From NCBI GenBank assembly GCA_013335095.1, contig JAAXWF010000001.1, positions 292,268 to 356,267 on the forward strand: a DNA stretch of 64,000 nucleotides, written 5' to 3'. Every line of letters begins with the position of its first letter. Position 1 is the stretch's first letter. Positions 662-45,618 of this stretch are shown here, piece by piece. Source of the DNA: a candidate division WWE3 bacterium. GTDB taxonomy: Bacteria > Patescibacteriota > 4484-211 > GCA-002791395. Made by a program: the position numbers and the translations under genes. The notes beneath the pieces were generated by a model that saw only the letters and a list, made by a program, of their open reading frames with translations, did no database searches and was not told where the DNA came from.

Positions 662-1147
662 ATGGCAAGAATGCATAAAATCCCACAAAATGTAACGACC
701 TACGAAGGAAAAGTAATTGGTCGATTTACGGCTAAACAGTTCATATTTCTTGCGATCGGCGCCATTGCTATATTTTTGGTCATTAGTATACCGCTCCCCA
801 AAGTAGTAAAGATTGTATTAGGCATTATTTTTGGTCTTATATCATTAATATTCGCACTGGCAAATTTTCAAGGAAGAACAACTGATGTTTGGATTAGCAG
901 TTTTCTCAAAGGAGTTAACAGCGCAACTCAGCTAATCTGGCGAAAATCTTACTATCCTCCAATGTACCTACTCCCCGATTATCACCCACCTAAAATGGAG
1001 CGAGGTCCACGCAAACGTTCGACTAATGAACTAGAACGATTTATCCAGTTGTATCAGCCGCCACCGGAAAGTTCCGATTACAGCCCCGAAGAAAATGAAG
1101 TACTACAAAGATTGCGCGAGATGAAAAAACAAGGAGGTACAGCATAA
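662..1147 (+). CDS. Small polytopic membrane protein, first gene of the VirB4 operon (PrgI/VirB3-like topology)
   Basis: 161 aa with two hydrophobic helices near the N-terminus; stop/start is tightly coupled to the next gene (1147/1150). T4SS-associated role is inferred from context only. Confidence 0.35.
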   Translation: MARMHKIPQNVTTYEGKVIGRFTAKQFIFLAIGAIAIFLVISIPLPKVVKIVLGIIFGLISLIFALANFQGRTTDVWISSFLKGVNSATQLIWRKSYYPPMYLLPDYHPPKMERGPRKRSTNELERFIQLYQPPPESSDYSPEENEVLQRLREMKKQGGTA

Positions 1148-1149
1148 CC

Positions 1150-2487
1150 ATGGATGACCAAATAAAGCCGACCCCACAACCAAACAGCACCGCTCATCAA
1201 CCGCCTCCGTCAAATAATATTGCATTTAGACCACTCGCTGGAGCGATAAACACGAATAATCAATCCAATTTAAACAAAAGTACCACCCCAGAGTCTTCAG
1301 CAACTCCGGATTCCCCTAATTTTGTTAAAGGCCATACGGTTATTCCGAGCAGTTCACCTCAAATAGTAACACCAGATCAATCTATCCCCCAAAAACAAAT
1401 ACCAACTACGCCCGAAGCCTCGCAGGTTCGGACTGCAAATCCACTTTTTATGTCCAATGAGCCAACAATACCCTACCAACAATCACAACCCACGATATCA
1501 CAGGCTGGGCCTGGACAACCGCAACCAGTACCAACCCAACCGATAGCTCAACAGGCACCCATTGCACAACCGCCGCAGCCGGCACCGATAATTGATCCCA
1601 CGATATTGCAAAAGAAGGCTGTGGAGAGCCAACAGTTAATGAATGCAGCGGCACAGATTGAACAAAAATTAGTCGAAAAACAAGAATTACTGACAAATTT
1701 GCAAAAGGAAAATCAACCACATAAAGACCAGCTACAAACGCTTAATACTGAATCAAAAACTATTGGCGCGGTCATACAGAATCTACGACAACAATTTAAC
1801 AATTTGGACGGAAATTCCCTGCATGTAGAAACAATGGATGAAATTCAAGAAAAAATCAAAGAAAAAGAACAGCAAAGTATCCAGCTCGAAAGCAAGATAA
1901 ATGCCCTTCATCAAAGCATATCGCAAGAACAGCAATTAACTAATGAAGTCGAAAACTATCGCCAACAAATACGTGAATTAGTTCAGCAGCAACAAAAGCT
2001 TCAAGATGTCATTAATGAAGAAGAACAAAAGCTAAATCAAATTACCCAGCAGCTAAACCAGCAAGTCCAAGAAACACAGAGTCGCGCTAATCAAATTAAG
2101 CAGTTGGAAGAATTCTTGAATGAAGCGATATTAAACACCGCACACACTCCTCCAACACCCGAAACAGTAAAGACAGCCCAATTTATGAATCCAAATGAAA
2201 TCCCAGTCTTAACTCAAAAGCCGAATGCAGTGAATGGTGTAGTTAAAGATCAAAATGGAAGACTATTACCTGACATGGTTGTTATGATTAAAGACGCTGC
2301 CAACCATAACTTGCGGGCAATGAAATCAAATAAATTGGGACAATTTGTTGTAACCACGCCTCTTGTCAATGGACAGTATTACATCGAAGTGTCGAAACCG
2401 GGATTTACCTTTGCAGTTGTAGAGGTTAAACTAGATGGTGGCATACTTCCACCTATTGAAGTAATCGGACATGAAACTACTACCTAA
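1150..2487 (+). CDS. Pro/Gln-rich coiled-coil protein with C-terminal carboxypeptidase-regulatory-like beta-sandwich, T4SS-operon member
   Basis: 445 aa. The N-terminal half is low-complexity (P/Q/T-rich), the middle is a heptad-like coiled coil (QQ..L..E..), and the C-terminus (VKDQNGRLLPDMVVMIKDAAN...GQYYIEVSKPGF) matches the CarboxypepD_reg fold pattern. Overlaps the next gene by 17 nt. Confidence 0.45.
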   Translation: MDDQIKPTPQPNSTAHQPPPSNNIAFRPLAGAINTNNQSNLNKSTTPESSATPDSPNFVKGHTVIPSSSPQIVTPDQSIPQKQIPTTPEASQVRTANPLFMSNEPTIPYQQSQPTISQAGPGQPQPVPTQPIAQQAPIAQPPQPAPIIDPTILQKKAVESQQLMNAAAQIEQKLVEKQELLTNLQKENQPHKDQLQTLNTESKTIGAVIQNLRQQFNNLDGNSLHVETMDEIQEKIKEKEQQSIQLESKINALHQSISQEQQLTNEVENYRQQIRELVQQQQKLQDVINEEEQKLNQITQQLNQQVQETQSRANQIKQLEEFLNEAILNTAHTPPTPETVKTAQFMNPNEIPVLTQKPNAVNGVVKDQNGRLLPDMVVMIKDAANHNLRAMKSNKLGQFVVTTPLVNGQYYIEVSKPGFTFAVVEVKLDGGILPPIEVIGHETTT

Positions 2488-3208
2488 AAGCCAAGACTTT
2501 TTAGAAATAATTGATATTAAAGACGGAGTCCTTGTATTAAGCGGAGGTAAGTTCCGTGTGGTTATTGAAGCAACCGCAATCAACTTTGACCTCTTATCCG
2601 AAGATGAACAAAACGCAACTATATTTGCTTATTCTAACTTAGTAAACTCGCTCAACTACCCTATCCAGATTTTAGTCAGAACGCGTCAAGTCGATATCAC
2701 AAATTATTTGAGTTACCTCAAAAAGTATCTTCGGGATCAACCAACCGCAGCATTAAGAGAACAATTACAAGACTACATCGATTTTTGCCAACAGTTGGTT
2801 TTGGAAAATATCGTCTTACAGAAGCGATTCTTTGTTGTTATCCCCTATTGGCAATCATCAACAACAGGACCAAGCACGCCCCAAAAGAAAGCCAAATCCC
2901 CCGGGTTACTTGATGGACTTCCATTAATTGGCAAAAAATCCACCACGCAACCGTTGGTTGATGACACCATTTATTCAGAAGAAGCATTCAAAAAAGCGAA
3001 ACAAAGTTTGAATCAACGGTATGAAGAGGTTCGATGGCAGTTCAAACGTCTCGGGATACAAGTGCGTCTTTTAGGAACCGAAGAGCTAATTCGGTTATAT
3101 TATGAAATACTTAACCCCGAGACTGGTCAAAATAGAGGACTCAAAGACGATTTATATGGATATACCGTACCGATTGTTAACTCGGCACTCGATATCGGAG
3201 AATACTAA
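2471..3208 (+). CDS. Hypothetical protein, T4SS-operon member
   Basis: 245-aa ORF translationally coupled on both sides (its stop TAA is directly followed by the ATG of the VirB4-like gene). Confidence 0.5.
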   Translation: MKLLPKSQDFLEIIDIKDGVLVLSGGKFRVVIEATAINFDLLSEDEQNATIFAYSNLVNSLNYPIQILVRTRQVDITNYLSYLKKYLRDQPTAALREQLQDYIDFCQQLVLENIVLQKRFFVVIPYWQSSTTGPSTPQKKAKSPGLLDGLPLIGKKSTTQPLVDDTIYSEEAFKKAKQSLNQRYEEVRWQFKRLGIQVRLLGTEELIRLYYEILNPETGQNRGLKDDLYGYTVPIVNSALDIGEY

Positions 3209-5454
3209 TGGATAAAATATTAAAACCGCTAAAAGATTTACTATCACCGAAAAAAAACGCCTCAAAAGCGGCTGCTCCAGCTGGCTCTGGGAATGGACCA
3301 AAACCAGCAGTACCAACTTCTGCATCTCTTAAACCAGGTGTGACACCTGCAGCTCCAAATACGCCAGAACTACCAACTCAAACCGATCAGGTTGATCGTC
3401 AACAAATAGTTAAACAAGCCCAATTATTTGCGCGTGGATTAATTGATATTAGAGACATTATCGCGCCAAGTGGTATTGAAGTTGATTTTAATGAGATTAG
3501 AATCGGATCGACCTATTACCGAACATATTTTATCGCAGGATATCCGCGAGAAGTCGGCCCCAACTGGCTTGCTCCGTTAATTAACTTTCCTCAAGCCCTC
3601 GACATTTCGATGTTTTATTACCCAATCGATGCTCGAGACGTGCTCAAAAATTTGCGTCGAAAAATTACCGAGATGCAGACCGAGCTAAACATAGAGTATA
3701 AAGAAGGACGTATTTTAGACCCCGAAGTTCAATTAGCTCTTCAGGACGCAAAATCGTTACAGGATGAGCTTGTTGCAGAGCGGGAACGATTCTTCCAGTT
3801 TGCCTTATACATAACAATACCTCACGAAGACGTAAAACAACTCCATCTTATTTGTAAGCAGGTCGAAAGCATATTAGCCGGTATCCTTCTACTGACTCGT
3901 AAAGCGACTTTACAGATGGACGACGGTTTTAGATCAACCTTACCAATTCATAACGATAAACTCCAGGTCTACCGCAACATGGATACGACATCGATAGCAA
4001 GTACGTTTCCCTTTACTTCAAGTAGTTTAACCAGTGATGAAGGTATCCTGTACGGTATCAATGAGCATAACGGAAGTTTAGTTGTATTTGACCGATTTAG
4101 GATGGAAAATGCAAATTCGGTAGTATTTGGAAAATCTGGTTCAGGTAAAAGTTACACGGTTAAACTTGAAGCAATCAGATACCTACTTCTAGGCACAGAA
4201 ATCATTGTTATTGACCCTGAACAGGAATTCAGAACCCTCAGCGATGTTATTGGTGGAGAGTATATTACCTATGACTTCACCTCAAAAACACGTATTAATC
4301 CATTTGATCTATCTCAAGTGTTTGAAGAAGGAGAAGATCAGCTTGAGACGAAGATCTTAGTTCTTCACTCACTCATGAAACTAATGCTTGGAGATATGAC
4401 CGCTAGCCAAGAAGCGGTGTTGGACCGAGCACTTTTGGAGACGTATCGATTAAAAGGAATATCATCAGATCCAAGCACCCAGCGAAAAGAACCACCACTT
4501 ATGGAAGATTTGTATAAGGTATTTCTTGGAATGGAAGATGAAGACGCCAAAGAACTCTCAAAACGATTGGAAAAATTCGTCATGGGATCGGCTAAAGGAC
4601 TCTTTGACCAGCCGACTAACATCGATATAAAAAATACATTTACCGTATTCGGTATTCGCGATCTAGAAGAAACAATCCGACCGATTGGTATGTTCTTAAT
4701 TCTTGATTATATCTGGACCAGAGTCCGTCGTGACCGACGCAAACGTCTACTCTTCGTCGATGAAGCGTGGATCATGATGAAGAATGCCGATTCTGCTAAC
4801 TTCATGCATTCCCTTGCAAAGCGAGCCCGAAAATATTACCTGGGAATAACCACGATCAGTCAGGATATTGAAGATTTCTTCAACCATGAAAAGGGTTTAG
4901 CAATCATTAAAAACAGTTCCATTCAGGTGCTCATGAAACAATCATCAAGTGCTATAGATAAACTGGCGGATGTCTTTATCCTATCTGAAGGTGAGCAAAA
5001 TCTACTCTTGTCGGCAAACGTTGGTGAAGGATTATTCTTCGCCGGACAAAATCACGTCGCGATACAGATGGTAGCCGGTCTCAAAGAACACGAATTAATA
5101 ACAACCAACCCAGCCGAATTACAACAAATCGAACGGATGAAACAACAACAAAACTCCGATGACCGTATCCGTAAGCTACAAGAACAGGGTCGGTTAACAT
5201 TCCAGACACCAACACAGCCGGATGCCCAACCAGCCGAACAACAAATGACGGATATGACATCGGCTCCAACTCCCGATGCATTAGATCAAAACGCCGGAAT
5301 GCCAGCATCTGATTCTTATGAGGCAGCTCCGACCCAGCAAACTGAAACAGAGATGTCACAAGGTGTTGAGATTACTGATTTCTCCCAAGGAGAGTCGACC
5401 CAACCGTCTCAACCCGAAGCAACGACGTTGCCCGATGATCCATCACAGGTCTAA
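3208..5454 (+). CDS. VirB4/TrbE/CagE-family type IV secretion ATPase
   Basis: 748 aa. Walker A VVFGKSGSGKSYTVK, Walker B RLLFVDEAWIMM, then TISQDIEDF, with a size and domain order typical of VirB4-like conjugation/T4SS ATPases. Confidence 0.75.
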   Translation: MDKILKPLKDLLSPKKNASKAAAPAGSGNGPKPAVPTSASLKPGVTPAAPNTPELPTQTDQVDRQQIVKQAQLFARGLIDIRDIIAPSGIEVDFNEIRIGSTYYRTYFIAGYPREVGPNWLAPLINFPQALDISMFYYPIDARDVLKNLRRKITEMQTELNIEYKEGRILDPEVQLALQDAKSLQDELVAERERFFQFALYITIPHEDVKQLHLICKQVESILAGILLLTRKATLQMDDGFRSTLPIHNDKLQVYRNMDTTSIASTFPFTSSSLTSDEGILYGINEHNGSLVVFDRFRMENANSVVFGKSGSGKSYTVKLEAIRYLLLGTEIIVIDPEQEFRTLSDVIGGEYITYDFTSKTRINPFDLSQVFEEGEDQLETKILVLHSLMKLMLGDMTASQEAVLDRALLETYRLKGISSDPSTQRKEPPLMEDLYKVFLGMEDEDAKELSKRLEKFVMGSAKGLFDQPTNIDIKNTFTVFGIRDLEETIRPIGMFLILDYIWTRVRRDRRKRLLFVDEAWIMMKNADSANFMHSLAKRARKYYLGITTISQDIEDFFNHEKGLAIIKNSSIQVLMKQSSSAIDKLADVFILSEGEQNLLLSANVGEGLFFAGQNHVAIQMVAGLKEHELITTNPAELQQIERMKQQQNSDDRIRKLQEQGRLTFQTPTQPDAQPAEQQMTDMTSAPTPDALDQNAGMPASDSYEAAPTQQTETEMSQGVEITDFSQGESTQPSQPEATTLPDDPSQV

Positions 5455-5495: not shown

Positions 5496-6197
5496 ATGAA
5501 CCAACGTGCTTTTATGGTCGTTGAAACAGGAATAGTAGCAGTTATTCTCCTGATTTTGGCGACAATATGGTTCGTTAGGTATAGTGCTCCGGTTCCGGTT
5601 TCACCATCGCAAGAGACGCCGCATCAATCGCCTACTCCTACCCTAACATCAATAATAACTAGCGCCCCAATACAAGAAGCCCAAACGCTAGATTTTCCTG
5701 AAAATTACCAATCGGCTTCTTGGACAGTGAATAACGTAGACGAGTTATCATTTCAGCTAAATTGCTTTGATACAAAAAGTCAAAAAATAGTTGATTGCAA
5801 TAGCCCTAAAAAAGGTGAAAAGATGTCAACAACGATTCCTAATATACCCAGCATTGAAGAGGCCCGAGACAAAATTGACAAGATTGGTGAATACTATGTT
5901 TCCGAGTTAACAAAACAAGGCTGGAATCATTACCTGTCTTTTAACGACGTCGATGTTTCATTACCTAATGGCGATGGACCAGCCGCGACAGCGTGGGGAA
6001 TGTTGGGCTACAAAGAACATACAGTGCGTTCTGCGTTCTTCTCGCAAAGCATTGAAGGAATAAGTTGGAATGAAGAAACCCTGGAGCCGATTTGTCCATG
6101 TACCGTTAAAGTTGACATTGAACTTAGTGAAAAAGCCCCCTTTTCACTCCCCCCTATTAGTATGAACAAATTCCCGCAAACATTTTCCGCACGATGA
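5496..6197 (+). CDS. Hypothetical membrane-anchored secreted protein
   Basis: 233 aa with an N-terminal transmembrane helix (VVETGIVAVILLILATIWFV), a P/T/S-rich linker and a Cys-containing C-terminal domain. Confidence 0.45.
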   Translation: MNQRAFMVVETGIVAVILLILATIWFVRYSAPVPVSPSQETPHQSPTPTLTSIITSAPIQEAQTLDFPENYQSASWTVNNVDELSFQLNCFDTKSQKIVDCNSPKKGEKMSTTIPNIPSIEEARDKIDKIGEYYVSELTKQGWNHYLSFNDVDVSLPNGDGPAATAWGMLGYKEHTVRSAFFSQSIEGISWNEETLEPICPCTVKVDIELSEKAPFSLPPISMNKFPQTFSAR

Positions 6198-6281
6198 ACA
6201 GGCTTCATGACAGCCTATATATCATTAATCGATACGTTAACCGCACAAATACCCGCATTATTTTCCCGCAATAACCGCATG

Positions 6282-7379
6282 TTACAGTACATTTAATTCC
6301 CGCAAATCAATTCGGGAATCATTCGGGAAATATTCGGGAATCATGTGGTCATTTACCGCTGCGGTAATAAATGTCTGATATGGTGCAATTTCTTGCGAAA
6401 GAACCGCCCGATTTGATTCATCTAACTCTGAAAAAACATCATCAAGAAGCAATATCGGACTATTACCAGTACTCTCAGACAAGATATCCCTCTCCCCCAT
6501 TTTTAACCGCATCATCGCCACCCTTTGTTGCCCACGAGATCCATAAATTCCCGCATCTTTCCATCCTTCAGGAGACGATTGATCAGCTATAAATACCGAA
6601 AAATCATCCCGTTGATTCCCTGTTAAGGTGAATTTTAATAACCTCTCTTTTTCCCGCAATCCCCGCATTTTTTCCCGCAATAATTCCCGCACATTTACCG
6701 AATTATTCTCCGCATTTATTTCCGCAAGATTCCCGCGCAATTCCCGCGGACTTGGTAAATAATTAATTTTGACGTCATATGGGGACAAAAGCCCATTTAA
6801 CCGATCAATTACCGCATTCCTGCGGGAATAAATTACCGCACCTTTTTCACTCATTCGGTCCTCAATAACCTCAAGAACATCCAGATTACCGCTTAATTCC
6901 CGCAGCAAGGCATTCCGCTGATGCAATAACTTTTGATACGTAATTAAATCTGCCAGATATTCAATATCATACTGCCCAATCAATCGATCTAAAAAATTAC
7001 GTCGTATGGCTGGAGAACCCGTCAGTAAATACAAATCGGTCGGTTGAAAATAGACAACACTAAAGTGACCGAAATAACGGCGAAAATCTACTTTTTTACG
7101 ATTAACAAAGAATGTTTTTCTAGTTAACTGAACAGCGACTGACAAAACAAAGTCACTAACGCTCCCCTCTATACGTGCATATGGTTGTTGCCACTGAATT
7201 AATTCCCGCATATGAGAAGTACGCGGAGAACTCCCCGTAGCAAGAAGGTAAATAGCCTCTAAAAGGTTACTTTTCCCGAAACCGTTCCGTTCAATAATGA
7301 CATTCGTAGTGGGATGAAAATTATTAAGGGTAATGCGGGAAATATTGCGGTAATTCTCTAAAATCAAATCTGTAAGCAT
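6282..7379 (-). CDS. recF: DNA replication and repair protein RecF
   Basis: N-terminus MLTDLILENYRNI...NVIIERNGFGKSNLLEAIYLLATG is the RecF Walker A region; length 365 aa; lies downstream of dnaA-dnaN. Its coding sequence carries an unusual TTCCCGCA array (see findings). Confidence 0.8.
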   Translation of the reverse strand: MLTDLILENYRNISRITLNNFHPTTNVIIERNGFGKSNLLEAIYLLATGSSPRTSHMRELIQWQQPYARIEGSVSDFVLSVAVQLTRKTFFVNRKKVDFRRYFGHFSVVYFQPTDLYLLTGSPAIRRNFLDRLIGQYDIEYLADLITYQKLLHQRNALLRELSGNLDVLEVIEDRMSEKGAVIYSRRNAVIDRLNGLLSPYDVKINYLPSPRELRGNLAEINAENNSVNVRELLREKMRGLREKERLLKFTLTGNQRDDFSVFIADQSSPEGWKDAGIYGSRGQQRVAMMRLKMGERDILSESTGNSPILLLDDVFSELDESNRAVLSQEIAPYQTFITAAVNDHMIPEYFPNDSRIDLRELNVL

Positions 7380-7384
7380 ATCAA

Positions 7385-8989
7385 TTACCGCTTTCTCGCA
7401 TACGCACCATTAATCCAACCTTGTTTTCCATCTTGCATTAAGATCAAAATATACCCGTTTTCCTCTCTAATCCAACCAAACTTGTCACCAGGAAATACTG
7501 TTGTAACAAGAGGTGCATTAAGGCCAGCACCTTCTCGGACATTTAAAAATCCTGTTGGTGTGTCTAGTATTGTTAACATATTAGTCTGCTCTCCAACGAC
7601 GTTCACCGATAAAGATATTCCGGAATCGGGAATAACATTCCCCTTTTCATCGCGTAATACAAACCTTTCATTAATCGTATCGGTATAAATAGGAGCTTTA
7701 AAATAAAATTGGAAGGTCGCGATAGAGCCCGGAAGCACCTGATCTTCAACAAAAGTTCCGACTTCATGGGGAGACCTCCAGCTCTCAGGATCATATAAAT
7801 ATGACTGTTCTCCCGTATCCGACGTGGTAAGTATCAACCGATGACTTCCCGACTTTTGCCATACAAATCCACTCATATTCTGCCATTTTAGTTCAGCTTT
7901 TCGCCGCTCCCCTGTCGAATAAGTCAGATTACTAAGTTGAGTTATTGATCTTGCATTTATCTGAGGATCCTTCCCAAGCTGAGAACGAAGCAGAGCAATA
8001 CTATGGCGAACCGCATCATTTAATGGCTTATCTTCGGAATTAACGACCAAAACAGGTGCAACATTGGCCTTATAACCAAGCTCCAAAAATTGAGAAAAAT
8101 CAAAATCAAAGATTCCCAACCCTTCATAAACCCGCCCCTTCTCATCAATTAAATAGGCAAACGGTAATCCAGTTGTCTTATATGTCGTTTCCATTAACGA
8201 TTCATATTCCCGCAAAAAATCCGGAAATAAATCGACATCGTTGTTTAACACCGAACCTTCGAGAGGAATACTCCAAACATCTAAAGAGTTCCAAGGTTTT
8301 ACGATCAATTTAAGATTATTCATAACCACCGATCCGCCCCCCCATTGTGCCCGAGACATTACGGTAAGGTCTCCATTGTCAGAGCCGGTATCTTCAACGT
8401 CCAATTTTTCGAGCTGATTTGTAAGTGAAGGAAGTAAGTCAACATTAATAGTGGTAAGTCGATCATTGGCAAAATCGAATTCGATAGTCTTATCCTGATA
8501 TCCTGGACGTTTAATCAGTATGGCGTGATGACCTGGGGCAACATCTTCTAAGGACAAGGGAGTAGATCCGACATCGGTGCCATCTAACGATATATTCGCA
8601 TTTGCCGGACGAGTTGCGATAACCACTTTACTTGAACCAGAAAATAATACGTGTGCAGGTTCGACACTTAATGAATATCCATAGGCAAACTTTTTATCAC
8701 CGGATATTTGACGTGAAATAATGCTTTCATTTCCAGAACCGATCGAAATTTTCTCTTTCCAAATATCTCCAATTTCGACAAGTTGCTTTCCTGCACTAAC
8801 TTCGACCGATTTCAACGGCGTATTCCCAACAATAACACCATTCACTTTTACTTCTTGAGAATCCATAGTTACATCAACCGAGAGAGTACCTTTTTCAGAA
8901 GTGGATGGACCATTAAAATAACCGAGCGCAAACCAAACGCCTACGATAACAGATACAATCAGAATAAATATTACGATGATACGGCTCAT
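7385..8989 (-). CDS. Cell-envelope protein with N-terminal transmembrane helix, PEGA domain and C-terminal SH3b-like domain
   Basis: 534 aa. PEGA-like segments VKVNGVIVGNTPLKSVEVSAG and ANISLDGTDVGSTPL...HHAILIKRPGYQDK; the C-terminus GFLNVREGAGLNAPLVTTVFPGDKFGWI...GKQGWINGAY resembles a bacterial SH3 domain. The stop overlaps the dnaN stop region, so it is operonic between dnaN and recF. Confidence 0.5.
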   Translation of the reverse strand: MSRIIVIFILIVSVIVGVWFALGYFNGPSTSEKGTLSVDVTMDSQEVKVNGVIVGNTPLKSVEVSAGKQLVEIGDIWKEKISIGSGNESIISRQISGDKKFAYGYSLSVEPAHVLFSGSSKVVIATRPANANISLDGTDVGSTPLSLEDVAPGHHAILIKRPGYQDKTIEFDFANDRLTTINVDLLPSLTNQLEKLDVEDTGSDNGDLTVMSRAQWGGGSVVMNNLKLIVKPWNSLDVWSIPLEGSVLNNDVDLFPDFLREYESLMETTYKTTGLPFAYLIDEKGRVYEGLGIFDFDFSQFLELGYKANVAPVLVVNSEDKPLNDAVRHSIALLRSQLGKDPQINARSITQLSNLTYSTGERRKAELKWQNMSGFVWQKSGSHRLILTTSDTGEQSYLYDPESWRSPHEVGTFVEDQVLPGSIATFQFYFKAPIYTDTINERFVLRDEKGNVIPDSGISLSVNVVGEQTNMLTILDTPTGFLNVREGAGLNAPLVTTVFPGDKFGWIREENGYILILMQDGKQGWINGAYARKR

Positions 8990-10125
8990 GCATTTGTCTC
9001 ATTGAGAGTCATCGGCATAACAATATGTTGATAATCGTGGCGATCATCAATCGCTTCAAGTAGTACGGGCGTACTCATACCGCTAATTTTAAGACGAATC
9101 TGTTCAGCATCAATCGATGAAACACCTTCTAATAAATAACGTGAATTAAATCCGAGTTGGATTGATTCGCCTTCAAGTACTCCGGTAATTTTACCGGTAT
9201 GACTTCCGACCTCTGAACTACGAGCGCTCAATTGCATAGTCTGAGTCTCTTTATCAAATTTTACCGTGATCGCTTGTCCTTCGCGAGAGGCAAACAGTGA
9301 TGTAGCTCGTATAGCTTCAATAAACTGTGATCGATTAAATGTTCCAGTCGTTACAAATTGCGTAGGGAATATTCGCTGATACGGAGGATATTCGGCTTCA
9401 AGAAGACGTGAGATAATCTCGACCTCACCATATTGGAAAAAGATTTGACTATCTTCTCGACTAAAAAATACCCCAACATTATCGGCACTCGTACTTGAAT
9501 CAGCTATCAGGTGATCAACCTCAGCCAGTGCTTGAGCAGGAACGATAATAGATCCATTCATCGCCGCATTGGTCGGTAATTTATATATAGACAAACGAAA
9601 ACTATCTGTCGCGACAACCGAAAGCATGCCCTCTTCAGCCTGAGTTAGTAGCGCACCAGTTAAAACAGGATGAGTCTCTCCTCCGGCAGCTGCAAAGCAC
9701 ACCTTTTTAACCATCCGACGAAATAGTTGAGGATCAAAACTCATATGGTTAGTTTGATTTTGACGACTTGGAAGCTCTGGAAAGTCCGTTGGTGGCATAG
9801 TTACGAACGTTGCTTGATTACTATTTGATTCAACAACTAATTGACGAAGATCACTATGCAACGTGAGTGTTTCGTCAGATAAGAGAGAGAGGAATTCACT
9901 GAATTTTTTTGCAGGTATAGTTATTTGTCCTGGTTCTTCGACTTTTGCCGCTATGGTTAATCGAATTGATAATTCAAGATTTGAAGATTCTATCTTTAAC
10001 AGGTTATCGGGAGTAGCGGTGAGCAGTAAGTTTGAAAGAATCGGTAAATTAGACTTAGTCGTGACTATCTTGGCGGCAAACAATGATCCTTTGTACAAAC
10101 GCTCACGAATTACGCTTAATCTCAT
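8986..10125 (-). CDS. dnaN: DNA polymerase III beta subunit (sliding clamp)
   Basis: MRLSVIRERLYKGSLFAAKIVTTKSNLPILSNLLL aligns with the DnaN N-terminus. The ORF track extends 12 codons further upstream (to 10161) but MRLSV is the likely start. Three-domain length of about 380 aa. Confidence 0.85.
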   Translation of the reverse strand: MRLSVIRERLYKGSLFAAKIVTTKSNLPILSNLLLTATPDNLLKIESSNLELSIRLTIAAKVEEPGQITIPAKKFSEFLSLLSDETLTLHSDLRQLVVESNSNQATFVTMPPTDFPELPSRQNQTNHMSFDPQLFRRMVKKVCFAAAGGETHPVLTGALLTQAEEGMLSVVATDSFRLSIYKLPTNAAMNGSIIVPAQALAEVDHLIADSSTSADNVGVFFSREDSQIFFQYGEVEIISRLLEAEYPPYQRIFPTQFVTTGTFNRSQFIEAIRATSLFASREGQAITVKFDKETQTMQLSARSSEVGSHTGKITGVLEGESIQLGFNSRYLLEGVSSIDAEQIRLKISGMSTPVLLEAIDDRHDYQHIVMPMTLNETNA

Positions 10126-10161
10126 AGTCAATACTTTAACATACACATTCTTTAGTAGCAA

Positions 10162-10404
10162 TTATAGGGGACGTGGATTAGTGGAAAACTACGTTACGCT
10201 ATGTTGATATACGCAAAGTGTTGTGGAAACTGTCGGGAAGAGTTTGGGATAGATTGTGGATTATTCACAATCTATAAATATTTATCCACAAAATAAAAAT
10301 ATAATCTACAAACTATCCACAAAATATAAAAAGTTATCCACAATTACAAACTTTGAGATACATTTATTAAAATTACGCCTATGAAATTATTATCCTAAAG
10401 ATGG
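10162..10404. promoter_or_regulatory. Putative oriC: DnaA-box cluster plus AT-rich unwinding region between dnaA and dnaN
   Basis: Perfect TTATCCACA boxes at 10282-10290 and 10334-10342; near-perfect boxes TTATTCACA (10261), CTATCCACA (10313), TAATCTACA (10302), TTGTGGAAA (10221) and TTGTGGATT (10254), followed by an AT-rich tract (aaaatataaaaag, catttattaaaatt). Further boxes lie upstream of dnaA (TGTGGATAA at 11922-11930, TTGTGGAAA at 11847). Confidence 0.7.
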
Positions 10405-11944: not shown

Positions 11945-12856
11945 TTATGCTTTTCTAAAACTGATTACAAAGCCGTAAGCGGTGAGCATAAACAGCAGGG
12001 TAAAGAAGATTAACGTATTTTCGGTCGTACCGCTTTCAGGTAATACCGTGGCAAGTGGAGTTGGAGTGACAGTTGGTCGTGATGTCGGTGTCGGGGTTTT
12101 TGTAGGTGTTGGTGTGCTTGTCGCAATTGGTGCCCCTAGTGCTACTGTGGGGGTATTTGTCGGACGACTGGTAACGCTTGGTGCTTGGGTTGGGGTATTT
12201 GATGGTTTTGCGGTTACAGTTGGGGCTATTGTTGTTCCCGCTGTAGGGGATGCCGCTGGGGTCGTATTTGCGTTTGTTCCTTCGCAGTCAAACGAAGAGC
12301 TGCAATAATTTTGTCCCGGACCAGGAACTTCGACGCATAATCCAAAACGGCATTCCAAATGGGTCTGGGATTGAGCGGTTTCAGAAGGAGTTACCGTTGG
12401 TGTTACTGCTTTAGTTGGCGTGGCAGTTGGTTCGGGTGTTTGGTTATTTGTAGAAGATGGTTTAAAGAAAAAGAACCACGCCGCCGCTCCAAGGCCTACT
12501 ATTAAGATACCAACAATGAGTAAGATGATGCGCATTTTTCCTCCTGAAGATCCTGATTCACCCTCTGTGGTTAGGGCTGGCGCCGGTTGATCTGGTTGTC
12601 CTGCGTTTTCTAGGTAATTTACGCCAAGTTGATCATGGGCATGATCTGGTTCAGGTGCGGCAATCATATCGTTGGGGTGGGGTTGATCAACCGGTGGGGT
12701 TGTGTTGAAGCTATTTGTAGTATCTATTGGCATGGGTGCTTGTGCGATTGGTTGTTCTGGCGCATATCCGGATTGAATAGGTTCAGCTGTTGGTGGGTAA
12801 TTGGTCTCGTTTATTGGAAGATCGTTCTGGGGTAGTGATTGGTCTTGGCTATCCAT
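11945..12856 (-). CDS. Pro/Thr-rich membrane protein, hypothetical
   Basis: 303 aa; central transmembrane helix (IILLIVGILIVGLGAAAWFFFF), a long PT-rich low-complexity segment, a Cys-rich module (CRFGLCVEVPGPGQNYCSSSFDC) and a C-terminal hydrophobic helix. Confidence 0.45.
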   Translation of the reverse strand: MDSQDQSLPQNDLPINETNYPPTAEPIQSGYAPEQPIAQAPMPIDTTNSFNTTPPVDQPHPNDMIAAPEPDHAHDQLGVNYLENAGQPDQPAPALTTEGESGSSGGKMRIILLIVGILIVGLGAAAWFFFFKPSSTNNQTPEPTATPTKAVTPTVTPSETAQSQTHLECRFGLCVEVPGPGQNYCSSSFDCEGTNANTTPAASPTAGTTIAPTVTAKPSNTPTQAPSVTSRPTNTPTVALGAPIATSTPTPTKTPTPTSRPTVTPTPLATVLPESGTTENTLIFFTLLFMLTAYGFVISFRKA

Positions 12857-12923: not shown

Positions 12924-14231
12924 ATGAATAAAAAACCAATTGTAACAACCGAAGGCTATCGTGGGACTCGTGATTTTTACCCATCAGAGATGGCTAAATT
13001 ACGATACATTTTTGACGTTTGGAGTCGAGTATCAAAACGATATGGATTTGAGGAATATTTAGCTCCACTTTTAGAAAATTGGGATTTGTATGCTGCTAAA
13101 AATGTCAGCGGTGAAGAGATTGTTAATGAACAATTGTACTGGTTTGAAGATCGTGGCGGACGAAAAGTAGCCATTCGTCCCGAAATGACGCCGAGTGTAT
13201 CGCGTATGGTTGCAGGTCGGCTGCAGGAGCTCATAAAACCGGTTCGATGGTATTCGATTGCCAACTTTATGAGGTATGAGAAACCACAGCGGGGGAGGGT
13301 GCGGGAATTTTTTCAATTGAACGTTGATTTGTTTGGTGATGACAGTATTTTGGCCGATGCGGAAATTATCGAAATTGCTGCGGCAATTATGCGGGAATTT
13401 AACGCAACCTCGGAGATGTATGCGATCTACGTAAATAATCGAAAATGGATGGATTTTTGGGTAAGTAAAGTGTTGTCATATAAGGGTGAAGTGTCTAAGT
13501 TGAATAGATTGATTGATCGGTTACCTAAGCAGTCTGAGTCTGAGAATGCGGCCCAGTTGAGCCAGTTAGGGCTTTCTACCAAACAGGTGGATATGGTGTT
13601 GCAGCTTCCTTTCATGTCTATTTCAGATGTGGCGAAATATCAACGAGAATCTGAAGGTGCCCGTGAATTAGTGGGTTTGTTTGAGGTCGTTGATAAAAGA
13701 AGCATAGGTGATATTGTTTCTTTTAATTGTTCGATTATGCGCGGGTTGGATTACTATACCGGAATGGTGTTTGAGCAGTTTGATTTAAATCCGGAGAATA
13801 AACGGAGTATGTGTGGCGGTGGTCGATATGAGGGCTTAGTTAGTATGTTTGGAAAAGATAATTTGACTGCGGTCGGATTTGCTCCAGGAGATGTCACGAC
13901 GTTAAACTTTTTAGAAGGATGGAATTTATTACCACAAATAAGTACCAATGCACCTATTTTGGTGTCTGTATTTAATTCGTCTTTGCAGGGTGAATCGTGG
14001 ATGTTGGCGCAAATTTTGAGACAATCGGGTTTGGACGTCGAGCTTTATACAAAGGATGGTATATCTATTTCTGATCAGTTAAAGTACGCCAATAAAAAAG
14101 GGTTTCGGTATGTGTTGATTTTAGGTGAAGATGAATTAGCTAAGGGTGAAGTCTTAGTTAAAGACATGGTATTAGGTAAACAGAATTCTGTTGTGGCTTC
14201 TGAGTTACCATCTCTACTTAAAAACTCCTGA
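12924..14231 (+). CDS. hisS: Histidine--tRNA ligase
   Basis: Class II aaRS motifs RGTRDFYP and ...KRYGFEEY..., HisRS-like length. Start taken at MNKK; the ORF track starts 6 codons earlier at 12906. Confidence 0.8.
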   Translation: MNKKPIVTTEGYRGTRDFYPSEMAKLRYIFDVWSRVSKRYGFEEYLAPLLENWDLYAAKNVSGEEIVNEQLYWFEDRGGRKVAIRPEMTPSVSRMVAGRLQELIKPVRWYSIANFMRYEKPQRGRVREFFQLNVDLFGDDSILADAEIIEIAAAIMREFNATSEMYAIYVNNRKWMDFWVSKVLSYKGEVSKLNRLIDRLPKQSESENAAQLSQLGLSTKQVDMVLQLPFMSISDVAKYQRESEGARELVGLFEVVDKRSIGDIVSFNCSIMRGLDYYTGMVFEQFDLNPENKRSMCGGGRYEGLVSMFGKDNLTAVGFAPGDVTTLNFLEGWNLLPQISTNAPILVSVFNSSLQGESWMLAQILRQSGLDVELYTKDGISISDQLKYANKKGFRYVLILGEDELAKGEVLVKDMVLGKQNSVVASELPSLLKNS

Positions 14232-14309: not shown

Positions 14310-14534
14310 TCAGATCTTGTTCTTCCCGCCGAAGACGGCGAGCATGAGCCCGATCAGAATCATGACGACGCAGACACCGATGCTGCAGATGGCAGCCGAG
14401 ACCTGGTGGTTGCTCACGAAGAGCATCACCAAAGCCGGGAAGCCCGTGTACGGATCATTCTTGAGACCCGCATACGTGCTGACCCCGAGCCCGAACCCAA
14501 CGACCGTCATAACGATACCGATGATCTGTGCCAT
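14310..14534 (-). CDS. Small two-helix membrane protein (GC-rich ORF)
   Basis: AGGAGG RBS 8 nt upstream of ATG (complement of 14534); 74 aa MAQIIGIVMTVVGFGLGV...MILIGLMLAVFGG. About 60 % GC versus the AT-rich flanks. ORF track extends to 14597. Confidence 0.45.
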   Translation of the reverse strand: MAQIIGIVMTVVGFGLGVSTYAGLKNDPYTGFPALVMLFVSNHQVSAAICSIGVCVVMILIGLMLAVFGGKNKI

Positions 14535-14769
14535 GACCTTGAACCTCCTAAATAAGATTGAAACGTGCCAGTGCCTCCGGCAGGGGATAAACCGCACCGT
14601 AGGCTTAATTTAAGTATACCGCTACCATACCCTATAGCAAGTTGCCGATAGTGCGAAATTTGTATTCCTATAGTTATTGCGGTAATTGTGCGGGAAATAT
14701 CATTACCTTGTTCATGCATAACCTTGATCAAATACACAATCAATATGGTTATTATGTTGCGGTTAGGAG

Positions 14770-14979
14770 GTGATAAACATGGATGAAAAAACTGTAAACC
14801 CGATCCAAATTCAGAAGTTTCTTGCCGGTGTCGATTATCCGGCAACAAAGGATGAATTAGTTGACTCTGCGGTAGAGCAAGGAGCTGATGACTCTGTTAT
14901 CGAGTCGCTCCAAAGCCTTCCGGATCAAGAATACCAAAAACCCACGGACGTTAGTGAAGCGCTAGGTAAAAAATCTTAA
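14770..14979 (+). CDS. DUF2795-like small protein
   Basis: KFLAGVDYPATKDELVDSAVEQGADDSVIESLQSLPDQEYQKPTDVSEA matches the DUF2795 pattern; a GGAGGTG RBS precedes it. Confidence 0.5.
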   Translation: MINMDEKTVNPIQIQKFLAGVDYPATKDELVDSAVEQGADDSVIESLQSLPDQEYQKPTDVSEALGKKS

Positions 14980-16928: not shown

Positions 16929-17576
16929 ATGCAAAAAGATACGTATACTTTTTTGAATAGCTACTTTGAACATAATCCTATGCACCATTTGGATGCAGGG
17001 GATATCTTAGTCCATCCTTCAAACCATTCACCAAATCTTCATTTCTTAGTAAGCGGCACCATTAAACAATATTCTATTGGAAGTAACGGTGAGGAATTAG
17101 TTATAACGGTGTATAAGCCGGGTAGTTTTTTTCCTTTAATGACGGCGCTTGGCGATATTCCTAATCGATATTATTTTAGCGCGCCGGAAGAATCAGAGGT
17201 TCGGATAATCTCGGTGGATGAAGTTAAAGAATTACTTCAAAAAGAACCAACGATTATGTTTGATCTGATAGGACGATTACTCCGAGGTATGCACGGGATA
17301 ATTAGTCGTTTAGAGTCGATCGCATTGGGGGACGCCCATGCACGGGTTGGGACGATGATCGCAATAACAGCTAAGCGTTTTGGCAAAAAAAACGATACCG
17401 GGAGCTTGGAGATTTCTTTAACACATCAAGAGATTGCGGCTGCTACTGGACTTAACCGAGAAACAGTTACCCGAGTACTGCGACATTTTAAAGAGATGGG
17501 GTATATCGATGCCGAGCATGGACATTTATACGTTCGAGATATTTCTATACTCGAATCTTTAGTTGCCGGGGAATAA
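16929..17576 (+). CDS. Crp/Fnr-family transcriptional regulator
   Basis: N-terminal cNMP-binding beta-barrel pattern and C-terminal HTH (SLTHQEIAAATGLNRETVTRVLRHFKEMGYI). Confidence 0.65.
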   Translation: MQKDTYTFLNSYFEHNPMHHLDAGDILVHPSNHSPNLHFLVSGTIKQYSIGSNGEELVITVYKPGSFFPLMTALGDIPNRYYFSAPEESEVRIISVDEVKELLQKEPTIMFDLIGRLLRGMHGIISRLESIALGDAHARVGTMIAITAKRFGKKNDTGSLEISLTHQEIAAATGLNRETVTRVLRHFKEMGYIDAEHGHLYVRDISILESLVAGE

Positions 17577-17597: not shown

Positions 17598-17645
17598 AGG
17601 GCCGGCACCTTCTGATCTTGGTGATCAGTTGGTACCGGCCGTGTT
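17598..17645 (-). terminator. Intrinsic terminator downstream of island gene A
   Basis: On the minus strand: GGCCGGTACC...GGTGCCGGCCC stem enclosing an inner TGATC/GATCA palindrome, followed by a T-rich tract. Confidence 0.4.
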
Positions 17646-18221: not shown

Positions 18222-18257
18222 GCCGACCTCCTTTGTTTTCAAAGAACTCGTTTTTAT

Positions 18258-18287
18258 ATTATAGGATAAAGATGTGTGTGTTGTCAA
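18258..18287 (-). promoter_or_regulatory. Consensus sigma70 promoter for island gene A (TTGACA N18 TATAAT on minus strand)
   Basis: Reverse complement of 18282-18287 is TTGACA and of 18258-18263 is TATAAT; the RBS and TTG start follow about 35 nt downstream. Confidence 0.5.
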
Positions 18288-18393
18288 AACGAAAAAACCC
18301 GGCCCTTTTTTCGCTCCCGAAGGAGAAAAATAGGTACCGGGTTGTGAAGAAGGGGACTGTGGTTAAGCCCCCTCCCTCTTCCGACTTAGCGAA
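18288..18393 (-). repeat. Structured repeat element copy 1 (UUCG-tetraloop hairpin nested in ACCCGG/CCGGGT stem) directly after stop of island gene B
   Basis: Shares about 90 nt with 19408-19504: ACGAAAAA(A)CCCGGCCCTTTTTTCGCTCC...GGAG...AGGTACCGGGT..GTG...CCGACT.GCGAACTA.GCC. The inner stem loop is CUCC-UUCG-GGAG on the minus-strand RNA. Confidence 0.55.
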
Positions 18394-19059: not shown

Positions 19060-19228
19060 GGGAGATTCTCCTCATGCATGTGGGGCATCTGCCCCATATC
19101 TTGACCACTAGGTCTCCATAAGACTGGGCGAGCCCTTTTTAGGGGGCGGCCCATCATTCCGACGGGTTGAGGGCGTGAGCCCTCTCCGAACCCCCGAAGG
19201 GGTCCCAAGTTACCCCGCCAGGCGGGTT

Positions 19229-27453: not shown

Positions 27454-27603
27454 AACATTTGTTATTTATGGCGATAGGATAGGGGATGTAGGGCGATTTG
27501 ATCTCGTTTATAAAAACTGTGCGGGAAATATGCGGGAATTAAGTAAGAAATGACCGGAAACTTTATAAAGCTTCCGGTCTTAACTATTGTCAACCTCAAC
27601 ATC

Positions 27604-45208: not shown

Positions 45209-45618
45209 TTTGGTAAATCGTTCGAGTGTTCGTTATATTTTCCCTATCTTTCTATTTGAATAAAACAATTTAAATATCATTGTTTTCCATTGTCGTTGAG
45301 TCGGGGATTGTCTCTGTTTTATCCAGTAAACGCCGCGAGTCTTATAGTATGCGGGAATTATTTAGTGCTATGTAAATGTTGTTATAGATTGACCTAACGG
45401 TTAAAAACCGACTATTCCACGTATTTACTAACATCGTGTTGACACATTACAGGATGGTATGTATAATTCTTACATAACGCTGAAATGTACCCAGTTCCCA
45501 GTGTTTGGCTTAGACGGTATTAACCTTGAGTTGATGCATGTTCGAAGCTGGGCACTTGGATCTGGGTATATTTTTATTGGTTAAACTTTTCCCCCAAAAT
45601 TAAAAAGGAAGTACGTGT

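Follow-up and report, generated by a model that had tools for sequence, protein, structure and literature searches.

An eight-base word arrayed in helical register across recF near the replication origin of a WWE3 clade recurs near host and viral promoters

In one clade of candidate division WWE3 bacteria, the recF gene carries a second signal at the level of its DNA: about 30 sites, near-variants included, that are built on the word TTCCCGCA and set 9-13 bp apart over the last two-thirds of the gene and the spacer behind it, 3-4 kb from the replication origin. The sites share the extended 10-bp motif WWTTCCCGCA, which is asymmetric and occurs mainly as direct repeats. The same word stands near promoters in host genomes and in phage-like contigs, where it may serve as a conserved promoter-proximal operator. 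We regard it as an evenly balanced proposition that the word is the operator of a putative regulator, with recF hosting an origin-proximal, cooperative, high-capacity array of it whose role would be to store or titrate the regulator or to organise the region. The array is described here in a window of 64 kb (the whole stretch of DNA analysed, part of a 536-kb contig), whose RecF is 100% identical to the RecF of a candidate division WWE3 bacterium, and is followed through orthologous loci.

Nineteen exact copies of TTCCCGCA/TGCGGGAA are found on the two strands of the window, compared with a mean of 2.55 and a maximum of 8 in 100 dinucleotide shuffles, and 11 of the 19 cluster at 6171-7341. A first-pass annotation of this DNA had counted at least ten exact copies over recF; exactly ten start within 6231-7400 (6263, 6297, 6548, 6651, 6672, 6684, 6821 on the minus strand, 6897, 7203, and 7334 on the minus strand), with the eleventh, at 6171, outside that interval. 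TTCCCGCG is present at 6730 and 6741 in recF, and a relaxed pattern, T[TA][CA]CCGCA, places 19 of its 33 window matches in 6150-7410. Three direct copies had also been reported just past the recF stop; the spacer there has one exact copy (6263) and three variants with one or two mismatches (6238, 6250, 6272). Beyond the spacer, the copies at 6171 and 6184 sit in the 3' end of the convergent neighbouring ORF. The annotation had further named a uniformly common motif as an observation that would count against its reading; hits in the window are instead concentrated at recF, the flanks are sparse, and the 8 exact copies outside the cluster are spread over 62.7 kb, about one per 8 kb. Coordinates of all features are collected in the table.

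Sites of the word and associated features in the window
Feature	Position	Strand	Context
Two copies, TTCCCGCA (6171) and TTTCCGCA (6184), 13 bp apart	6171..6191	+	Last codons of convergent ORF 5496-6197; outer edge of array
Four copies, TAACCGCA, TACCCGCA, TTCCCGCA, TAACCGCA; spacings 12, 13, 9 bp	6238..6279	+	85-bp non-coding spacer between convergent genes
recF coding sequence, 365 aa, carrier of array	6282..7379	-	Walker A, signature and Walker B motifs intact
Exact copy	6297..6304	+	Encodes RecF C-terminal Leu-Arg-Glu-Leu
Three copies of variant TTCCCGAA, exactly 11 bp apart	6311..6340	-	Opposite to main array; three different reading frames
Palindromic overlap of two TTACCGC half-copies (TTACCGCTGCGGTAA)	6353..6367	.	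Encodes Ile-Thr-Ala-Ala-Val; also in L001
Two isolated copies, TAACCGCA (6504) and TTCCCGCA (6548)	6504..6555	+	6548 in Ala-Gly frame
Core run, nine direct copies; start-to-start 9, 12, 12, 11, 12, 12, 11, 11 bp	6651..6748	+	Encodes length-variable helical segment SPRELRGNLAEINAENNSVNVRELLREKMRGLREKE
Three copies, 12 bp apart, alternating: TTACCGCA (+), TTCCCGCA (-), TTACCGCA (+)	6809..6840	.	
Pair TTACCGCT / TTCCCGCA, 11 bp apart	6886..6904	+	Encodes Leu-Leu-Arg-Glu-Leu-Ser-Gly
Exact copy	7203..7210	+	Encodes Met-Arg-Glu-Leu
Pair TTACCGCA / TTCCCGCA, 12 bp apart	7334..7353	-	recF codons 9-16; opposite to main array; kept in L001
oriC-type canonical DnaA-box cluster (TTATCCACA and one-mismatch variants)	10173..10342	.	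dnaA-dnaN spacer; context, outside array
hisS mini-cluster, four copies (13300, 13358, 13379, 13390)	13300..13397	-	About 3 kb beyond oriC on the other side
Pair TTCCCGCA-caa-TTACCGCA in 11-bp register, then TATAGG after 5 bp	14678..14696	-	
Pair TTCCCGCA-tat-TTCCCGCA	27520..27538	-	Between terminator of upstream gene and def (26875-27453, -)
Single copy, TATAAG 3 bp on	45350..45357	-	410-bp spacer after lon

Such counts invite comparison with DNA uptake sequences of Neisseria and Pasteurellaceae, which are likewise exact 8-10-mers under DNA-level selection and also lie inside genes. These occur about once per kb genome-wide, are not phased, and are biased to genome-maintenance genes; the uptake core of Haemophilus contains GCGG. 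A dispersed genome signal that piles up at recF, either an uptake sequence or a strand-polar signal of the Chi/KOPS type, would fit the mild excess outside recF (8 copies, when 2.55 are expected for the whole window) and the flip in orientation of exact copies at oriC (10 of 12 on the plus strand to the left, 6 of 7 on the minus strand to the right). The strand bias is confounded, however, because gene orientation also flips at oriC. A density of about one copy per 8 kb outside the single phased cluster is far under that of known uptake sequences, and exact 11-bp pairs kept at one promoter across genomes and a 30-copy phased cluster are left unexplained, making this a very improbable account.

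Selection acts on the word as DNA. Seven coding copies read xTG-CGG-GAA and encode Arg-Glu, a frame that the first-pass annotation had assigned to all of them; the others lie in other frames (6548, Ala-Gly; 6660, Arg-Gly; 6730, Arg-Gly-Asn) or on the opposite strand (6821, 7334 and 7346, encoding Ser-Arg or Tyr-Arg). Nor is CGG otherwise rare, as had been supposed, since in the window's other genes it accounts for 20% of Arg codons (183 of 932); a tRNA-Arg(CCG) gene is located at 20598-20674. Arg-Glu pairs are coded CGGGAA in 7 of 7 cases in recF, versus 7 of 63 elsewhere. Synonymous-codon resampling of RecF predicts 0.16-0.46 copies; the seven orthologs have 3-10, a number not attained in any of 5000 resamplings. 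This result and the conservation of the 8-mer among orthologs uphold the earlier proposal of DNA-level selection in place of a protein repeat. If RecF itself needed Leu-Arg-Glu repeats and the word were a by-product of recent slippage or codon bias, one would expect the [LMV]-Arg-Glu encoded by the seven in-frame copies and the conservation of the REKER segment in the protein alignment, but not the shortfall of resampling in all seven orthologs, nor copies spread over three frames, both strands and non-coding sequence, nor the retention of the same word upstream of def and in viral contigs; we give this explanation hardly any credence. The 8-mer is exact while the spacers differ, so the array is not a recent tandem duplication. 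Tandem Repeats Finder (TRF) scores 66% matches for the period-11 array, whose whole units are not alike in the manner of a simple tandem repeat, and unrelated tandem repeats caught by the pattern scans have identical spacers, unlike the recF array.

All seven orthologs, with 39-73% amino-acid identity, keep the exact 8-mer, while spacers, positions, frames and strands differ. The first-pass annotation had asked whether orthologs would encode the same residues with other codons and without the motif; the opposite is seen down to 39% identity. Clusters are present in L001, L002/3, L004, L125/6, L127 and L209; there is none in L128, L210 and L211, nor in 80 distant recF loci, where the most frequent 8-mer reaches at most 5 copies. 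Conservation of the cluster tracks one WWE3 clade. The L001 equivalent of the window's 85-bp spacer measures 440 bp and has about 12 copies within it. Over about 100 kb of flanking DNA at the orthologous loci there are 2-13 loose single sites per locus and no paired sites, except for one opposite-strand pair of one-mismatch sites in L127.

The sites are phased. Spacings between them peak at 11-12, 22-23 and 33-35 bp, and a global period of 11.25-11.45 bp gives the best fit in each of the six clusters, with the register kept across more than 1 kb. Against null models that keep local runs, long-range phasing is significant in four of six loci (P 0.003-0.019) and not in the other two, the six being related by descent and hence not independent tests. 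The helical spacing of about 11-12 bp noted in the first-pass annotation describes most of the core run, which also includes one step of 9 bp. A register of about 11.4 bp would place every site on one slowly spiralling face of the helix, and from this we infer that the regulator most likely oligomerises cooperatively on the array, in a form that wraps the DNA or resembles a filament.

Short direct repeats of about one turn, some of them inverted, also make up plasmid centromeres such as parC/ParR of R1 (ten 11-bp repeats), tubC/TubR (12-bp repeats) and the omega heptads. ParR, TubR and omega wrap their repeats into a superhelical complex and also use them as promoter operators, so that plasmid centromere-binding proteins double as transcriptional regulators. 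The recF array matches these systems in its phasing of about one turn, and differs in being chromosomal, in extending over 1.2 kb with gaps, in lying inside a housekeeping gene and in its position, which is not upstream of a partition operon of its own. A centromere-like or chromosome-organising site, wrapped by a small adaptor of the ParR-parC, TubR-tubC or omega type and used for origin segregation or anchoring with the promoter sites secondary, is an unlikely alternative. It would account for the origin-proximal position kept across the clade and for direct repeats of 11-12 bp period in register over more than 1 kb, and it would suit a window in which neither ParA/ParB genes (Pfam) nor a palindromic parS-type site was seen. 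No partition ATPase, adaptor gene or partition operon lies beside the array in any of the seven loci, however, and the occurrence of pairs at one to three places per phage-like locus, before packaging and other genes, is a promoter pattern. The asymmetric word, repeated mainly head to tail, is also unlike parS, the 16-bp palindrome of ParB centromeres.

In the window, 2.9-4.1 kb separate the array from the DnaA-box cluster at which GC skew changes sign. Canonical TTATCCACA boxes cluster at 10255-10342 and upstream of dnaA, both here and in four orthologous loci, and at orthologous loci, too, the DnaA boxes occupy the dnaA-dnaN spacer and the array the corresponding part of recF, within the clade gene order dnaA-dnaN-PEGA/SH3-recF-T4SS. 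Such conserved canonical clusters in five loci indicate that DnaA specificity is ordinary, and DnaA is excluded as the array's binder by the canonical boxes that oriC carries. Of the iteron-like or origin-associated binding sites first suggested, the helical phasing and the location near the origin therefore stand, and an origin binder of DnaA type does not. A replication element, be it a variant DnaA box, a datA-like DnaA sink, or iterons of a plasmid-type or second origin, is highly unlikely: the array is near oriC, its core CCGCA is one base from the DnaA-box core CCACA, and its 9-mer-like sites follow an 11-bp register like that of the low-affinity DnaA sites arrayed in oriC, but canonical boxes are present in the five loci, no rep gene is found in any of the seven (the neighbours being recF, the PEGA/SH3 protein gene, dnaN and T4SS-like genes), no AT-rich unwinding element adjoins the array, and the word is used at def and before phage-contig genes, unlike iterons.

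The likeness in layout to datA and the DnaA-box clusters near oriC of Escherichia coli and Bacillus subtilis, which titrate a protein that also acts as a transcription factor, lies in a dense near-origin cluster, with an 11-bp type of register, of sites that are also used singly or paired at promoters, the cluster itself not being tied to switching on a gene. The recF array differs in its non-DnaA word, in overprinting a coding sequence and in having about 30 sites in place of about 5, with titration suggested here by layout. Among phage intragenic arrays (the lambda ori iterons in gene O, pac sites in terS), phased sites likewise lie in a tolerant linker of a coding gene; there the encoded protein or its partner acts on the DNA of its own gene, whereas nothing hints that RecF recognises the word. 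In the window, Pfam searches show no obvious binder candidate besides a Crp/Fnr protein and a YebC homologue, neither of which is expected on direct repeats. The Crp/Fnr regulator (16929-17576) is without support as the binder, the recF sites being direct repeats and not the palindromes that this family binds.

Away from recF, the word is found close to promoters. Upstream of def, two or three copies set exactly 11 bp apart are present in each of three genomes (a pair in the window, a pair in L286 and a triple in L288), whose flanks are unrelated. Flanking the pair at 14678/14689 are two divergent genes, one (14310-14597, -) an ORF for a small membrane protein and the other (14770-14979, +) a DUF2795 gene. 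Pairs of the WWE3 type also occur in about 18-20 diverse low-GC viral contigs, some before terminase genes; these phage-like contigs share the word with the clade. In one of them (L301) a pair directly precedes terS (pair, 7 bp, TGtTATAAT, 6 nt, ATG) and another precedes terL. The ten viral loci of the first scan have 1-3 such sites each and no super-cluster. A -10-like hexamer follows the proximal copy at a variable distance of 3-9 bp in about 12 of 17 non-coding cases, L301 terS being the clearest, a tally picked by eye in AT-rich DNA and possibly due in part to chance. The presence of the same word near promoters of host and phage-like contigs moves the reading from iterons to regulator sites plus a super-cluster.

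This arrangement recalls the pho-box arrays of OmpR/PhoB-family regulators (PhoB, Streptomyces PhoP, and HLR1 of RpaB), in which a word of 7-8 bp and an A/T-rich spacer of 3-4 bp are repeated head to tail every 10-11 bp and abut the -10 in the place of a -35 element. Runs of at least two head-to-tail copies, exactly 11 bp apart, are likewise found at def in the three genomes, at 14678/14689 and in viral contigs. The family is also known for longer arrays and for sites inside genes, in part from one published account (PMC9934606). The sequence here is unrelated, however, the proximal copy ends 3-9 bp from the -10-like hexamer, a 30-site intragenic array is without counterpart, and the window contains no candidate gene for a winged-helix response regulator.

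We propose that WWTTCCCGCA would be the recognition site of a sequence-specific DNA-binding regulator in this one WWE3 clade. Its ordinary targets would be def, the gene for the small membrane protein and, in phage-like contigs, terminase and other genes, each with two or three head-to-tail copies exactly 11 bp apart beside a -10-like hexamer. In recF, about 30 sites would have been written over the tolerant helical middle, the C-terminal part and the spacer, in any frame or strand that fits. The array is flanked by convergent 3' ends and has no gene to switch on, and can thus be read as a high-capacity docking locus near oriC. Such a locus would buffer free regulator and tie it to origin copy number, and might also be an organising point for the origin region; the layout is what suggests the reservoir or titration role. 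An extension of this proposal, which we hold with low confidence, is that the recF array is a natural decoy, a sponge kept where genome copy number is highest, which takes up regulator needed also at the late (packaging) promoters of the clade's phages. The sponge would then set the threshold of the host regulon, and late genes of the phages could be expressed later or less strongly because of it.

Control of recF itself is a doubtful alternative. A bound regulator could form a roadblock, or copies with -10-like hexamers could form regulated antisense promoters, RecF being made only when the regulator is inactive. In the dnaA-dnaN-PEGA/SH3-recF string recF comes last, so an internal block would hit recF alone; promoter copies point to the -10 and most recF copies are antisense; TAAATA stands 7 bp after the last copy of the core run; and an opposite-orientation pair covers codons 9-16. 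A roadblock needs one or two sites, however, leaving unexplained about 30 phased sites, among them the dozen copies in 440 bp of non-coding DNA past the L001 stop. Moreover, the array region shows no excess of sigma-70-like promoters, and the candidate antisense -10 hexamers, which show no conservation at the DNA level, coincide with codons of a conserved Tyr-Leu-Pro-Ser-Pro stretch. An element acting in RNA, in which UGCGGGAA repeats of the recF mRNA bind an RNA-binding protein or pair with inverted copies, is exceedingly improbable. Most copies do place UGCGGGAA in the sense orientation in recF, and in the window the 3' end of recF has more folding potential than shuffled sequence (z = -2.9), but the non-coding array of L001 lacks excess structure (z = 0.09), matches to Rfam families number zero, orientation relative to transcription is reversed at def and phage-contig genes, and the inverted copies vary in number and place.

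To our knowledge, few bacterial systems other than those of DnaA and partition have natural high-capacity arrays of regulator sites, and we know of none in which about 30 phased sites are overprinted on a conserved housekeeping gene in genomes with proteins diverged to 40% identity. If the regulator-site reading is true, the recF array illustrates the extent to which a coding sequence can yield to a second code in its DNA, and the word would be the first cis-regulatory word, with a partial regulon in host and phage-like contigs, for this uncultivated WWE3 lineage, as well as a concrete bait with which to retrieve the regulator from organisms beyond the reach of culture. As a marker, the motif might also link phage contigs to this clade. 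Were the decoy role true, a housekeeping gene would have been recoded into a titration device for regulation or against phages, one maintained through deep divergence within the Candidate Phyla Radiation.

The sites outside recF listed in the first-pass annotation are all present in the window, with one hisS position corrected from 13291 to 13300. In the hisS mini-cluster the copies at 13379 and 13390 are 11 bp apart, and those at 13358 and 13379 are variants.

The array of the word TTCCCGCA (complement TGCGGGAA) over recF is real, conserved and under selection at the DNA level. The window holds 19 exact copies against 2.55 expected (maximum of 8 in 100 shuffles), 11 of them within 6171-7341, and 19 of its 33 matches to a relaxed pattern lie within 2% of its length. 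With variants of one or two mismatches included (TTACCGCA, TAACCGCA, TTTCCGCA, TTCCCGAA and TTCCCGCG), about 30 sites are found between 6171 and 7353. A core run of nine copies (6651-6748) is spaced by 9, 12, 12, 11, 12, 12, 11 and 11 bp. Six copies lie past the recF stop codon: the 85-bp spacer holds four, and the other two sit within the final codons of the neighboring ORF. In the orthologous locus L001, about a dozen copies carry the array on across 440 bp of non-coding DNA. The main orientation places TGCGGGAA on the recF sense strand; small groups at codons 9-16 and towards the 3' end run the opposite way. A simple tandem repeat was rejected as a description of the array. The first-pass annotation had placed all coding copies in one frame and had considered CGG a rare arginine codon; neither statement holds, as other frames and the other strand are also used (copies 11 bp apart use two frames, for example CCG-CGG-GAA-TTG-CGC-GGG-AAT), and CGG makes up 20% of Arg codons elsewhere, with a tRNA-Arg(CCG) present.

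The same annotation's proposal that selection acts on DNA rather than on a protein repeat is borne out by codon bias, resampling and ortholog comparison alike. Arg-Glu is written as CGGGAA in 7 of 7 cases in recF versus 7 of 63 in the window's other genes. When each RecF protein was held fixed and its codons were redrawn from the window's usage, 0.16-0.46 exact copies were expected per gene, and the 9, 10, 10, 7, 5, 9 and 3 copies observed in seven orthologs were attained in none of 5000 redraws. In orthologs of 73, 48, 46, 45, 40 and 39% amino acid identity, taken from independent assemblies, the identical 8-mer is clustered over the 3' half of recF and beyond its end; synonymous sites are saturated at this divergence, yet the 8-mer is letter-perfect, which points to selection on the DNA. 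Spacers, copy number and positions in the protein alignment all differ among orthologs while the 8-mer stays exact. Copies are concentrated in a length-variable helical segment of RecF, which as a result takes the form of LRE-x repeats (such as RLREILRELLRE...ILRELLREILREMREKE in the ortholog at L127). Neither the word nor any other enriched 8-mer was found in one more distantly related WWE3 recF (L128, 35% identity), in two other Patescibacteria loci (L210 and L211) or in 80 distant recF loci, and a metagenome search based on universally conserved RecF peptides, which returned only relatives of at most 37% identity, served as a negative control. Genomes without the motif include GCA_020429905.1 (WWE3) and GCA_018824115.1 (another member of the Patescibacteria). 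Among the loci compared, the array is restricted to the clade with the gene order dnaA-dnaN-PEGA/SH3-recF-T4SS.

Alignment of 78 exact copies gives the consensus WWTTCCCGCA, in which the two leading positions are A or T and never C. Neighbors of the same orientation are most often 11-12 bp (30 cases), 22-23 bp (15 cases) or 33-35 bp apart, and a Rayleigh scan of main-orientation sites in six loci gives best periods of 11.35, 11.35, 11.40, 11.45, 11.25 and 11.45 bp. Against null models that keep local runs intact and shift them relative to each other, either freely or in multiples of three, long-range coherence is significant in four of the six loci (P 0.003-0.019), which are related by descent so that the tests are not independent; the two loci that have fewest runs fall short of significance. 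Because the period exceeds the 10.5 bp of B-DNA and is held for more than 1 kb, the sites spiral slowly round the helix, as would be expected if the DNA were wound round a protein oligomer or covered by it.

Features of the recF-origin region, sites of the word outside recF, and other features of the window
Feature	Position	Strand	Remark
T4SS-like block	662-5454	+	PrgI, TraC-like, VirB4/TraG-like
Hypothetical ORF	5496-6197	+	convergent with recF
recF	6282-7379	-	
PEGA/SH3 protein gene	7385-8989	-	
dnaN	8986-10161	-	
dnaA	10405-11820	-	
Pro/Thr-rich protein ORF	11945-12856		upstream of dnaA
hisS	12906		diverges here; loose group of word copies inside
Pair TTCCCGCA-tat-TTCCCGCA			between a terminator and def
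Pair TTCCCGCA-caa-TTACCGCA			between small membrane-protein ORF and DUF2795 gene
Fusion ORF	15250-16824		
GC-rich island	17600-20700		
tRNA-Arg(CCG)	20598-20674		
GC-rich stretches	37208-40038, 48520-51616		
Sigma-70 promoter	45440-45468	+	TTGACA, 17 bp, TATAAT
Sortase genes	46153-47091, 62196-62840		
tRNA-Ile(UAU)	47177-47253		ARAGORN call

The window's RecF is 100% identical to a protein that NCBI assigns to a candidate division WWE3 (Patescibacteria) bacterium and that is encoded on a 536-kb contig. The sign of the GC skew changes at about 9-10 kb in the window, and canonical DnaA boxes (TTATCCACA or one mismatch) occur five times in the dnaA-dnaN spacer and twice more upstream of dnaA, which together place oriC about 3-4 kb from the array. 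These separate boxes exclude the array as a DnaA box cluster or part of oriC itself, a plasmid-type iteron origin is discounted because no rep gene lies nearby, and parS because the word is not palindromic; a centromere-like role for this origin-proximal array appears unlikely. To the left of oriC, 10 of 12 exact copies are on the plus strand, and 6 of 7 to the right are on the minus strand, but gene orientation switches there too, so we draw no inference from this flip. No Rfam match and no conserved structure or fold was found that would make the array a known RNA. Uniform abundance of the motif, the outcome that the first-pass annotation had set against its own proposal, is not seen: outside the cluster there is one copy per 8 kb of window, and about 100 kb of orthologous flanks hold 2-13 loose single sites per locus and one opposite-strand pair of one-mismatch sites (L127), which also rules out a frequent word of the uptake-sequence type.

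The T4SS-like block is conserved beside the origin region throughout the clade (the window, L002, L004, L125, L127 and L209); it also includes a CarboxypepD_reg-domain protein, and rnpA-yidC-jag lies beyond it. Upstream of dnaA, a conserved gene codes for a Pro/Thr-rich protein whose C-terminus has an LPESG motif and a hydrophobic tail; the protein looks like a sortase substrate, and two sortase genes are present in the window. This protein and that of the ORF convergent with recF were rejected as binders of the word, being low-complexity membrane or sortase-substrate-like proteins. In L125, a perfect 7-bp microsatellite, TTACTGA x16.7 (9884-10000), ends exactly at the recF start codon; L126 carries the tract at the same place with about half the copy number and an identical RecF protein. 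The length of the tract is thus polymorphic, with a possible modulating effect on recF expression.

Outside recF, the word occurs in multiple copies at three sites in the window: at def, in the small membrane-protein/DUF2795 region and in hisS. The def element recurs in relatives as a pair in L286 (def 65% identical) and a triple in L288 (78%), always in an 11-bp register and directly after the upstream terminator, in flanking DNA that is otherwise unalignable, and it is absent from L287 (54%, different gene context); the comparison amounts to a phylogenetic footprint for a site of operator type. In roughly 12 of the 17 host and viral pairs that lie in non-coding DNA, a -10-like hexamer can be picked out by eye 3-9 bp beyond the proximal copy, so that the pair covers the place of a -35 element and spacer. 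TATAAT precedes the ATG by about 6 nt in the window (27453-27475), in L288 and in the viral contig L301 (7721-7745), and by about 13 nt in L286, a proximity that suggests mRNAs with no leader, or almost none, in the clade and in its phages.

Viral contigs were scanned for word pairs with the observed spacer types, which gave three kinds of match. In one kind, about 18-20 diverse low-GC contigs (0.36-0.51) carry pairs of WWE3 style, with variable tat/cat/caa/taa spacers, A/T flanks and the TTACCGCA variant. Contig L301 has such a pair followed by 7 bp, TGtTATAAT, 6 nt and the ATG of the gene for the small terminase subunit, and a second pair lies upstream of the large subunit gene. The ten WWE3-style loci mapped have one to three sites each and no super-cluster, and the examined segments of the first-scan contigs have no detectable protein in common, which fits a factor supplied by a common host, the host assignment being putative. 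The other two kinds are phage families with true 11-bp tandem iterons, TTCCCGCAaaa adjoining a primase/helicase-like gene and TTACCGCAaaa between an ArpU-family regulator gene and terminase genes; we treat both as look-alikes from other kinds of phage, picked by the search pattern. In a scan of viral contigs for triple copies, all 74 matches are tandem repeats with identical spacers, many probably coding, and were set aside as noise. The GTDB triple pattern TTCCCGCA-N(1-25)-TTCCCGCA-N(1-25)-TTCCCGCA has at least 120 loci, the listed matches coming from taxa outside WWE3/Patescibacteria, and these, by analogy with the viral triple-copy matches, are probably ordinary tandem repeats.

Among the look-alikes, 13 related high-GC viral contigs (L298:1750-2100, L291:5000-5350) have TTCCCGCAaaaTTCCCGCAaaaTTCCCGA together with additional CGGGAA/GGGAT repeats. 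These lie in the spacer preceding a gene for a product of about 720 aa that resembles a zinc-finger primase/helicase at its N-terminus, and may mark an origin or early control region. In low-GC contigs (L333:3354-3400, L319, L328 and relatives), four to six 11-bp iterons TT(A/C)CCGC(A/T)aaa are placed at the 3' end of a packaging/lysis regulator gene of the ArpU family and ahead of terminase genes; some of these contigs have sample identifiers that begin with 7000000, which we take to be human-microbiome samples.

We propose that a putative sequence-specific regulator recognizes WWTTCCCGCA and would bind in head-to-tail fashion, every 11 bp, at a small number of host and phage promoters. The closest layout is that of operators of OmpR/PhoB-family winged-helix response regulators, which the 8-bp word and 3-bp A/T-rich spacer, as direct repeats abutting a -10 element, resemble; small ribbon-helix-helix or AbrB/MraZ-like oligomers would also fit, and a LexA with a direct-repeat site may also be the binder. 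The DUF2795 protein, likewise considered as a binder, has no relative with a solved structure. The recF array would offer this regulator roughly ten times more sites than all others in the 64 kb together, in one register, between two convergent genes with nothing to switch on and 3-4 kb from oriC, features that we read as those of a locus where it would dock cooperatively and in high capacity. This docking locus may act as a reservoir or titration site whose dose tracks origin firing, following the logic of datA, and possibly also help to organize the region around the origin. That a roadblock or antisense transcription serves to control recF itself we regard as quite unlikely. The boldest reading, a decoy competing with phage late promoters, seems quite improbable. 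Clustered arrays of regulator sites are known, and what appears to be new here is their overprinting on a housekeeping gene; a literature search on the 8-mer returned only primers, and the WWE3 discovery paper lists a recF and no repeats.

Several further features of the window were observed. The GC-rich island (55-61% GC, in surroundings of about 41%) codes for basic hypothetical proteins with coiled coils and no Pfam match, ends beside tRNA-Arg(CCG) and looks like foreign or integrated DNA. Two other GC-rich stretches each hold two or three paralogous hypothetical genes, also without Pfam match (C-termini such as ...DAFFYDIVIM, ...DAFFFELKMV and ...VAFYYDVVVVEP), and the first contains one exact TTCCCGCA (39466). 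In the 410-bp spacer after lon, a consensus sigma-70 promoter with no credible ORF behind it (45440-45600) may drive a candidate small RNA, which has no meaningful Rfam match. The tRNA-Ile with anticodon TAT (UAU) is unusual in bacteria, where AUA is normally read by a lysidine-modified CAU tRNA. Lastly, a vitamin-K-epoxide-reductase-like membrane domain and dihydroorotate dehydrogenase are fused in one ORF.
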